Virus record (IMG/VR): IMGVR_UViG_2734482568_000006
DNA: 47,553 bases
Source: a virus
Taxonomy: Duplodnaviria > Heunggongvirae > Uroviricota > Caudoviricetes
Reading direction: 5' to 3' (one strand)
A program made the translations under genes and the position numbers. The notes under the pieces were generated by a model that was not told where the DNA came from, ran no database searches, and saw nothing but the letters and a program-made list of their open reading frames with translations. Positions 13,545 through 15,406 of this stretch are shown here, in pieces. Position 1 is the first letter of the stretch; each line of letters begins with the position of its first letter.

Positions 13545-13570
13545 CTTTCCTGAAAACCTCGGTTTACGGG
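13545..13570. repeat. gix-like recombination site (invertase crossover site), proximal to gin
   Basis: ttcctgaaaacc tc ggtttacgggaa: 26-bp two-half-site architecture like gix/hix sites. Confidence 0.6.
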
Positions 13571-13920
13571 AAACGGTAAACAGGGCGGCGAATGCTCTGC
13601 CATCGGACGGCACCGCCGTTGCCGCGAATAGACTCGCCACCCCAAGAAATATTAATGGGGTTCCCTTTGACGGGACGCAGGACATAAACATCACTTCTGG
13701 TATAACACAGCAGGATGCGGATTCCCGATATATCCAGGATATCAGGCTGGGAGCAGAGAACAGGCAGGTAATGTACGGTGGGGCATATTACTCTGCGTAC
13801 GGTAATGTTATGGCAGGCCTGCAGATTGACAGTAAAGTTGATGCTTCAAACGATTTTATAGCATTCAGACCCCTGCAAAAATTAGTCGGAGGTACATGGA
13901 TTACGGTATCTCAGTTATAA
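13571..13920 (+). other. Alternative tail-fibre C-terminal coding segment (Sv-prime-like, silent in this orientation)
   Basis: Plus-strand frame reads ..[46 protein letters not shown]...QKLVGGTWITVSQL and has no start of its own; it would be fused to the constant part of the fibre gene after inversion. Confidence 0.6.
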
Positions 13921-13971
13921 ATAGTCAGTAAATAATATATTTTAAAACAGATTTATTTCCAGGAGGATTTT

Positions 13972-14493
13972 ATGGAACTAAAAAATATAACCCGTTATTA
14001 TCCTGAAAATATGCCATATGGTAATAATGTTCAGTATTTCCAGAGTGAAGATGGTAAGGATTTCTACGAATCCCTGCCATTATTCACCAAAAAATATAAA
14101 CTTTGCATAACACCTGACAGCGGCGTTATCTGCTCAATATCACAGGACGCCTCGGCGCTGTATCCTGCGGGGTTTTCTGTGGTTGAGGTCGATGAACTCC
14201 CTGAAGGCACGGATATTTCAGGAAACTGGAAGTTTGATAATGGCATAATCTCCCGTATTCCGGTTAACTACGCAAGAAAACTGGAAGCAATGCGCCAGTC
14301 ATATCTTAATCAGGCATATGAAAAAATTAATGACTGGAGAACGGAGCTACAACTGGGCACCATCAGCGATGAAGACAGAGCAGCACTTACCCAATGGATG
14401 GCATACATCAGTCAGGTGAAGAAAATGGAACTACCCGCCATTAAAACAGAAGCTGAATTTAACGCCATTAAATGGCCTGAGCAGCCACAGTAA
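13972..14493 (+). CDS. Tail fibre assembly protein (Tfa/U-prime-like)
   Basis: 173 aa with features of caudoviral tail-fibre assembly chaperones; sits immediately downstream of the alternative fibre C-terminus, as Mu U-prime follows Sv-prime. Confidence 0.75.
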   Translation: MELKNITRYYPENMPYGNNVQYFQSEDGKDFYESLPLFTKKYKLCITPDSGVICSISQDASALYPAGFSVVEVDELPEGTDISGNWKFDNGIISRIPVNYARKLEAMRQSYLNQAYEKINDWRTELQLGTISDEDRAALTQWMAYISQVKKMELPAIKTEAEFNAIKWPEQPQ

Positions 14494-14495
14494 TA

Positions 14496-14520
14496 AAGAA
14501 GGCCGGAAGGCCTTCTGAAT
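14496..14520. terminator. Hairpin between convergent tail-fibre and tfa genes (possible bidirectional terminator)
   Basis: gaaggcc ggaa ggccttc perfect hairpin between the two convergent stop codons. Confidence 0.4.
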
Positions 14521-14524
14521 ATCA

Positions 14525-15406
14525 TTATATACTTGCAGCCGTCACCCATGCTCCATTTAACAGATACTGCAACGGCCGGTAATACACGCCGCCGACGTTA
14601 TCTGCCGTATTCTTACCGACATCCTGTACTTTAATTCCGGTAAGAACATTGCCGCCCCCCAGATTCAGATCCCAGCTTTCCCATGTTCCGGGCATATGTG
14701 CGGTCACCGACCCCAGTCTTATGGCGGTTACTGTTCCTGATGAGATAGTGATATCCTGCGTCCCGTCAAAGGGAACACCATTAATTGTGTGGGCATTTGC
14801 CAGCCTGTTCGCGGCAACGGCGGTGCCGTCCGATGGCAGGGCATTCGCCGCCCTGTTTACCGTTTCCCGTAAACCGACGTTATCGATAAAAGCCCCTTTA
14901 TCCGGAATGTCTGCGCCGTTCTGCTCCCTGCGCAGGTAACGGTTATCACCTTCGCTTTTGCTGTAAACATCCAGATTATTACGGGCGGTTCCCTTATTCT
15001 CCAGGTCGGCGAGATTCTGATCCTTCGCCAGGGCATTAACGTCAGCGGGACCAAGACTGTTTTTTGTGGCAAGCGTCCCCAGACCAAGATAACCACGGGC
15101 CAGACGCTGGGCCTCCGCACCGGCATCAGCAATTTCTTTCAGGTTATTTTTCCGGGAAAAGGCATTCGCAGCGATAATGGCTTTAATGGACAGCGTAAGC
15201 TGGTTTAACTGCGCCTTATCCGGCTGAATACTGGCTTCAGCCAGAATATTCAGCAGTTCGGCCTGGAGAATATTCAGCCAGTCCTGACCAATCCAGCTGA
15301 TACCTTTTTGTCCGTCACCTTCGGTAAACCAGGTGGTGGTATTACTCTGCGCCGGTGCCAGCGCAGGCATATTCGCCACGCCGGAATTATTATCAACATG
15401 AAACAT
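14525..15406 (-). CDS. Tail fibre protein (Mu S-like; constant N-terminal part plus currently expressed variable C-terminus)
   Basis: Mu-syntenic position after the baseplate genes; contains the gix-like site and the repeated [14 protein letters not shown] segment. Confidence 0.8.
14870..14895. repeat. gix-like recombination site inside the tail-fibre gene
   Basis: Reverse complement ttatcgataacg tc ggtttacgggaa shares the central tc and the right half-site with the site at 13545-13570, in inverted orientation. Confidence 0.6.

Follow-up and report, generated by a model that had tools for sequence, protein, structure and literature searches.

A one-tfa, asymmetric variant of the Mu G segment in a Mu-like prophage of Escherichia coli

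In the invertible G segment of phage Mu, each of the two alternative fibre-gene ends is accompanied by its own tail-fibre assembly gene (S-U and S'-U'), giving two convergent tfa genes, and the C segment of phage P1 with its cin gene is a switch of the same kind. Here we analysed a 47,553-nt stretch of DNA (IMG/VR record IMGVR_UViG_2734482568_000006; hereafter the window), in which positions ~8415-47047 are occupied by a Mu-like Escherichia coli prophage of ~38.6 kb that is of the O157 Sp18 type. Its invertible segment carries two alternative fibre tips, tip A (expressed in the present orientation) and tip B (silent), but only one tfa, leaving one of the two states without a cis-encoded chaperone. 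The locus shares with the Gin/gix family the invertase, the inverted pair of sites, the occurrence of both orientations and the in-frame exchange of fibre ends, whereas the Mu and P1 feature of one assembly gene per alternative fibre part is missing. A cognate tfa immediately downstream and on the same strand, as expected for Tfa-dependent tips, is found for tip B and not for tip A. The locus is thus a real and conserved asymmetric variant of the Mu G segment, and the contrast with Mu drawn in the original prediction is confirmed.

The gene order corresponds to that of Mu (gp47, gp48, S, invertible segment, gin, followed by com and mom). All on the minus strand, the order of transcription is transposase A/B, head and tail genes, gp47, gp48, the fibre gene, the invertible segment, gin, a 684-aa protein with an esterase domain, com and mom. 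Gin is intact; it shares 74% identity with Mu Gin over 184 aa and has the catalytic Ser9 within a YIRVSTNDQ motif. As in Mu, the gix sites are 26 bp long and one of them lies inside the fibre open reading frame (ORF; for coordinates, see Table 1). The two window sites, which resemble Mu gix (TTATCCAAAACC TC GGTTTACAGGAA), are inverted relative to each other, have matching TC/GA cores and are identical in their inner halves and flanks; a distance of 1317 bp separates their crossover centres. In the 47.5 kb, exactly two copies of a 23-nt core (TCGGTTTACGGGAAACGGTAAAC) are present, one per strand, with none expected from shuffled sequences. The sites belong to longer inverted arms (86 nt with 93% and 50 nt with 84% identity), i.e. 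~150 bp of coding sequence, compared with 34 bp reported for Mu. Both repeat arms code for the same 25-residue stretch and continue into different C-termini. Inverting positions 13561-14875 in silico yields an in-frame fibre of 296 aa, which shares residues 1-203 with the 293-aa form encoded at present; the last ~115 codons are swapped by the inversion. In these respects the predicted Gin-invertible segment of about 1.3 kb, bracketed by inverted gix-like sites and encoding at each end a common stretch with a distinct C-terminus, is borne out.

In Mu, a recombinational enhancer bound by Fis acts in cis and is located inside the 5' part of gin. The corresponding gin DNA of the window is 60-88% identical to that of Mu in 40-nt windows. 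A strict Fis-consensus regular expression detected no site in the enhancer-bearing 5' part of gin, neither in the window nor in the Mu positive control, where the sole match was at nt 525, near the 3' end.

Both orientations occur in public genomes. Near-identical prophages among 5,426 complete E. coli genomes were found in the window state in 21 genomes and collinear with the flipped construct in 5-6; strains DLI.5a, TOE17 and AST46 have two copies each, one per state. Synthetic queries combining gin and tfa in either relative orientation, which also catch diverged lineages, assigned 203 genomes to the window state and 33 to the flipped one. The tfa-less tip is therefore the joined one in 203/236 E. 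coli genomes with the locus (about 4% of the complete genomes), counts that are phylogenetically non-independent and include many genomes from clonal Shiga toxin-producing lineages. An exact copy of the 293-aa product is encoded by at least 997 public contigs, and one of the predicted 296-aa product by 271, Shigella sonnei being among the latter. IMG/VR loci of the window prophage type were in the window state in 11 cases and flipped in four; it has to be considered that this survey used a narrow gix regular expression which misses most P2-like loci, so its loci are examples and not frequencies. Rather than a single orientation fixed by an inactive gin, we thus find both states in nature and an intact gin in the window: the switch is active in nature. 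Literature searches returned only the symmetric S-U / S'-U' description and no mention of a one-tfa G segment, which is common in sequenced E. coli but apparently undescribed.

Some related switches are damaged. In lineages L003, L004, L015 and L018, 1 bp has been deleted from the outer half of the gin-proximal gix (CTGAAACC vs. CTGAAAACC), gin is frameshifted in L015 and L017, and the fibre gene is broken in O157 (L004). These switches are probably frozen. Furthermore, a partial tail protein of Shigella sonnei (P0002) is chimeric: in it, the beginning of the variable part of tip B (INITSGITQQDADSRYIQ) leads into the variable part of tip A. This suggests either that recombination took place inside the extended inverted repeat or that the repeat caused an error of assembly.

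The fibre gene encodes a miniature S protein (293/296 aa vs. 504/~495 aa in Mu), and the invertible segment is smaller (1.3 kb vs. 3 kb). The constant part of the fibre (Sc) is homologous to Mu S residues 1-191, while Mu S residues ~192-430 have no counterpart, meaning that the ~240-residue shaft of the Mu variable part (Sv) is missing. In the cryo-electron microscopy structure of Mu, the fibre N-terminus docks on gp48 (PMC11915804). The distal knobs are homologous to the last ~70 residues of Mu S and S', as is the single Tfa to U: tip B matches Mu S residues 435-502 (5YVQ_A, E 1.6e-9), and a profile of type-A and type-C tips (see below) matches residues 439-503 in the same structure (E 7.7e-8) as well as the short fibre of phage phiTE (9CUY_c, E 4e-28). 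A Pfam scan of the fibre found no domain. We considered a C-terminal intramolecular chaperone of the T5 pb1 or endosialidase type in tip A and rejected it: Pfam indicates no extra domain, the part after the shared region has 70 residues vs. 72-75 in tfa-linked tips, and the same conserved terminal strand is present. The protein-homologue search with the tip returned 8 fragments only, and an AlphaFold2 monomer of tip A based on an 8-row alignment reached a mean predicted local distance difference test score (pLDDT) of 45, making the model unusable.

The only tfa has a strong AGGAGG ribosome-binding site and is, in the present orientation, convergent with the fibre gene. It follows tip B after a 51-nt spacer and comes to lie on the same strand as the fibre gene only after inversion, in agreement with the original prediction. 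A second tfa, which would have restored the Mu layout, is absent: a six-frame search of the whole window with a hidden Markov model (HMM) built from diverse Tfa sequences gave one match (2.5e-85), the next best having an E value of 4.2. We also discarded a hidden second chaperone, there being no room past the stop codon of tip A and the minus-strand ORFs within tfa being antisense to a gene under purifying selection. The stop codon of tip A is 31 bp from that of tfa, and the intervening sequence consists of nothing but a GC-rich, terminator-like hairpin. The expressed fibre end, stated beforehand to be without a cognate chaperone downstream, is indeed followed by this hairpin and then by the 3' end of the convergent tfa. 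All lineages have an equivalent hairpin in this position; in Mu, such a hairpin separates U from U'. Scans with the sigma-70 consensus upstream of tfa and between gin and gix revealed only weak promoter-like matches, none of them above chance and none conserved in position among lineages. The spacers in front of tfa (51-121 nt) are AT-rich, and each of the three types contains weak promoter-like matches (8/12). A counterpart of the C-site of Mu Pmom (TTATGCCCCAATAA) was not found upstream of com in the window.

The one-tfa layout, consisting of one tip with tfa and a convergent tip without, was recovered in all nine diverged E. coli lineages fetched (RefSeq annotation plus mapping), one of them inside an Stx2c phage. 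In 9/9 lineages the tfa-less slot is occupied only by the related tip types A (window and L015) or C (the seven others), which have the motif G-(K/S)-N-(T/S)-ADN-(V/I)-GGVYYRP in common. The tfa-linked slot harbours four tip types that are 33-48% identical to one another. All nine tfa-less tip ORFs are intact. For their distal parts, pairwise ratios of nonsynonymous to synonymous divergence (dN/dS) range from 0.06 to 0.20 (0.09 for tip A vs. L015), at a dS of 0.47 up to saturation. The values match those of tfa and of the linked tips. The tfa-less tip is under purifying selection, which rules out a decaying remnant: selection maintains it as a functional receptor-binding module.

Tfa does not co-vary with the tip it follows. 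Tip D of L003 and tip B of the window are 33% identical, but the Tfas beside them 91%, and the overall range is 85-91% identity for Tfas beside tips with 33-48%. Between the window and L002, on the other hand, tip B is 99% identical, yet Tfa only 65%. In L003 (3048-3171) and L015 (2472-2598), the spacer between tip and tfa is ~120 nt long and still codes for the end of a replaced type-E tip (INGSWRTAGSA-stop). Tips must therefore have been exchanged in front of a resident tfa, and this spacer is the scar left by recombination upstream of tfa in which a cassette was replaced. A clustering of Tfa N-domains by the class of the linked tip was not used as evidence for specificity, since it is explained by physical linkage.

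How is the tfa-less tip assembled? Gin recombines the inverted pair of gix sites, of which one is located in the fibre gene and the other beside gin, so that the 1.3-kb segment flips and the tip is exchanged on a fibre that keeps the baseplate-attachment part of Mu S at its N-terminus and a Mu-type distal knob. In the flipped state the late operon reads Sc, tip B, tfa; in the present state it reads Sc, tip A and stops at the hairpin, with tfa on the opposite strand and presumably not transcribed together with the late operon. According to our proposal, the type-A/C tip of the short fibre would be able to form trimers and to attach in the absence of Tfa from the phage itself, and the switch would alternate between a tip lacking Tfa and one whose assembly involves it. 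Since Tfa remains on the fibre in Mu, it may do so in the phage studied here as well. As an explanation of the whole, a miniature asymmetric G-segment host-range switch with tip A used without Tfa has, in our estimate, a probability of about 0.5. That a Mu-type knob is built and used without a Tfa in cis, be it through unaided folding or through a generalist Tfa that reaches the cell whatever the orientation, seems to us an evenly balanced proposition. For the narrower claim that tip A is assembled without the phage's Tfa, we would go up to even odds or stay somewhat below them, and slightly prefer it to a shared generalist chaperone. It is favoured because the knobs are slot-specific, a terminator directly follows the knob, no tfa promoter is detectable and the window state predominates in lysogens, the latter being expected from a founder effect of infective particles of that type.

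Several observations weigh against this proposal. The A/C knob type is not intrinsically chaperone-free, because it is tfa-linked in lytic phages and in Citrobacter braakii. In 4/4 phage records examined (POP15, CR8, Av-05 and 18-1-2), the tip is followed by tfa 5-17 nt later, with the Av-05 knob being more distant in sequence, and in the Citrobacter braakii prophage (see below) the type-C knob is the tfa-linked tip. In addition, the window Tfa is similar in its first 50 residues to the Tfa of POP15 and CR8, whose partner is a type-C tip. The homologous Mu knob is the part bound by Tfa (5YVQ). The lack of co-variation between Tfa and tip described above fits a generalist chaperone that is able to serve tip A as well. 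Late-activator-dependent promoters lie outside the model of our promoter scans, which used the sigma-70 consensus only, and the genome counts behind the predominant state are phylogenetically non-independent. Finally, U mutants of Mu were reportedly seen by Grundy and Howe in 1984 to be devoid of fibres.

The possible, though less probable, alternative is a shared generalist Tfa that folds both tips and is available in both orientations, by way of an unrecognised promoter in the segment (e.g. a late-activator-dependent one), sibling copies flipped during replicative transposition, or a second prophage in the other state. The missing co-variation, the type-E remnant left by tip swaps before an unchanged tfa, the POP15/CR8-like N-terminal region and the linkage of type-C tips to tfa elsewhere all argue in its favour, as do the strong ribosome-binding site of tfa, the weak promoter-like matches in the AT-rich spacer and the strains holding two copies in opposite states. 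These points have to be set against the convergence of tfa with the late operon across a hairpin terminator, and against promoter candidates that neither exceed chance nor are conserved. Gin inversion in Mu is moreover reported to be slow, and a Tfa present in both states would leave the slot-specific tip types of the nine lineages without a reason. Tip A could also rely in trans on the Tfa of another resident prophage, such as the lambdoid, P2-like or e14-type prophages of which most E. coli strains carry one. Genomes of E. coli abound in Tfa-family genes and Pin/Gin invertases, with 3630/5426 genomes matched by the gin portion of the query. Tfa proteins are known to cross-complement one another: T4 gp38 can be replaced by lambda Tfa as well as by P2 G. 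We nevertheless regard such complementation as unlikely: the late genes of a resident prophage are repressed while another phage grows, and host range would be hostage to the prophages of the lysogen, yet the layout is stable in many backgrounds, including Shigella sonnei and Citrobacter rodentium.

About equally unlikely is an ON/OFF switch or a decaying locus, in which deletion of a second tfa would have left the window state with fibres that do not assemble and particles that do not infect. A need for Tfa is the norm among Mu-type knobs, and decay is visible in the lineages with a damaged gix, gin or fibre gene. Such a dead end is, however, at odds with the strong purifying selection that the tfa-less tip shows between lineages whose synonymous divergence is saturated, and with its intact ORF in 9/9 cases. 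It also sits badly with the majority of the window state in lysogens, as a founder effect of infective particles would give, and with a Citrobacter prophage with a long S in which the same layout arose or persisted. The least probable of the explanations considered is that RecA-dependent recombination between the ~150-bp inverted repeats, and not Gin, made the inversions seen in the databases. The length of the repeats is unusual for a gix system, and the Shigella sonnei P0002 chimera joins both tips within the repeat region; gin is intact, however, and canonical gix sites with matching cores are located exactly at the reading-frame junctions. This alternative would in any case concern only the catalyst and not the nature of the switch.

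Among other phages, the closest relatives of the A/C knob are the short fibres of Vequintavirinae (phiTE 9CUY, POP15, CR8 and Escherichia phage 18-1-2; 46-52% identity by tblastn). In contrast to the window prophage, these are lytic phages without an invertase, and their fibres of ~550 aa contain Ig-like domains. The likeness to phiTE is one of sequence, tfa adjacency having been read in the records of POP15, CR8, Av-05 and 18-1-2; in the phiTE structure (9CUY) the knob is not resolved. A Mu-like prophage of Citrobacter braakii ATCC 51113 (L006 7001-10871), the only useful one of four loci from a scan of genome contigs with Sc, has a full-length S (472 aa, with a gp37_trimer domain) and an invertible segment of 2.9 kb. 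No tfa is located behind its S gene, and a single Tfa (229 aa, with a DUF4376 extension) follows the alternative tip. One Tfa for two or three tips is also encoded by the P2-like prophages in IMG/VR loci L031, L042 and L067, which share with the window a Gin-family invertase (75-77% identical) and an inverted repeat crossing the fibre gene. Unlike in the window, their fibre is of the P2 H type (Phage_tail_fib N-terminus), and the tips lacking Tfa are Gp53-like_C (PF21882) and not Mu-type knobs. In these loci the collar-type tip has Tfa, whereas one or two Gp53-like_C tips are without, L067 having three alternative tips in total. Other IMG/VR loci display the classical two convergent tfa genes. 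The symmetric G segment of the textbooks is thus just one of several layouts in enterobacterial prophages.

If a knob is used without a Tfa in cis, inversion would exchange the receptor-binding tip and at the same time add or remove the Tfa cap, giving host-range control a second layer. When the host range of phages and tailocins is engineered, tail-fibre chaperones are a limiting factor, since a new tip must usually be transferred along with its own Tfa. The present locus offers two leads that can be tested by cloning, namely a Mu-type knob kept by selection in a chaperone-less slot and a Tfa that is unchanged beside very different tips. Both point to a chaperone-independent version of a widely used fold or to a broadly acting chaperone.

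Table 1. Positions of the fibre switch and adjoining genes in the window
Feature	Position	Strand	Basis and remarks
gin, serine DNA invertase, 190 aa	12909..13481	-	Pfam Resolvase E 1.6e-51 and HTH_7 E 4.9e-15; transcribed away from the invertible segment
gix, gin-proximal	13547..13572		TTCCTGAAAACC TC GGTTTACGGGAA; crossover dinucleotide 13559-13560
Inverted arms, 86 nt	13552-13637 / 14799-14884		
Inverted arms, 50 nt	13651-13700 / 14736-14785		
Silent alternative 3' fibre part, type-B tip, tfa-linked	13561..13920	+	lacks its own start codon; inversion is required to join it to the constant part
tfa, 173 aa, only tail-fibre assembly gene	13972..14493	+	PF02413 E 4.8e-19; PHROG 136; Mu U (5YVQ_B) E 4e-16
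GC-rich hairpin separating the stop codons of tfa and the convergent fibre gene	14497..14516		terminator scan; fold -21.9 kcal/mol, z -3.15; on the minus strand followed by TTATTACTGT, T-rich, terminator-like
Whole fibre ORF, 293-aa miniature S protein	14525-15406	-	full-length match to PHROG 1833
Expressed variable 3' fibre part, type-A tip, tfa-less	14525..14875	-	translation; A/C-tip profile matches
gix, fibre-proximal, inside the fibre ORF	14864..14889		TTCCCGTAAACC GA CGTTATCGATAA; crossover dinucleotide 14876-14877
Constant 5' fibre part (Sc)	14877..15406	-	residues 1-191 align with Mu S 1-191 (5YVQ_A E 9e-46, 8JU3_A E 9e-47)
Mu gp48-type baseplate wedge gene	15406..15966	-	Pfam Phage_Mu_Gp48 E 7.5e-22; directly upstream of the fibre gene
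gp47	15957-17039	-	

A prophage with 99% identity to that of the window is present in E. coli JE86-ST05, at a different chromosomal site and in different flanking DNA. The JE86-ST05 copy sits inside an rhs element, and several genomes have two or more copies. The differing flanks of a 99%-identical copy together with the multicopy genomes point to recent transposition or infection, i.e. to an active phage. At window positions ~29510-29590, ARAGORN finds no tRNA, nor does it anywhere else in the window; in the matching JE86-ST05 copy, RefSeq annotates a 'tRNA-OTHER' there (L100 29516-29595).

A further difference to Mu is the esterase module between gin and com/mom. This interval (10152-12823, minus strand) encodes the 684-aa protein, which has a sialate O-acetylesterase (SASA) domain and DUF6645 (PHROG 143), followed by DUF1378 and DUF826 genes. 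The trio of SASA, DUF1378 and DUF826 is typical of the nanS-p region in Stx and lambdoid phages, and it looks like a moron module imported into the Mu-like prophage. The module follows gin in all related lineages and is truncated in O157 (L004).

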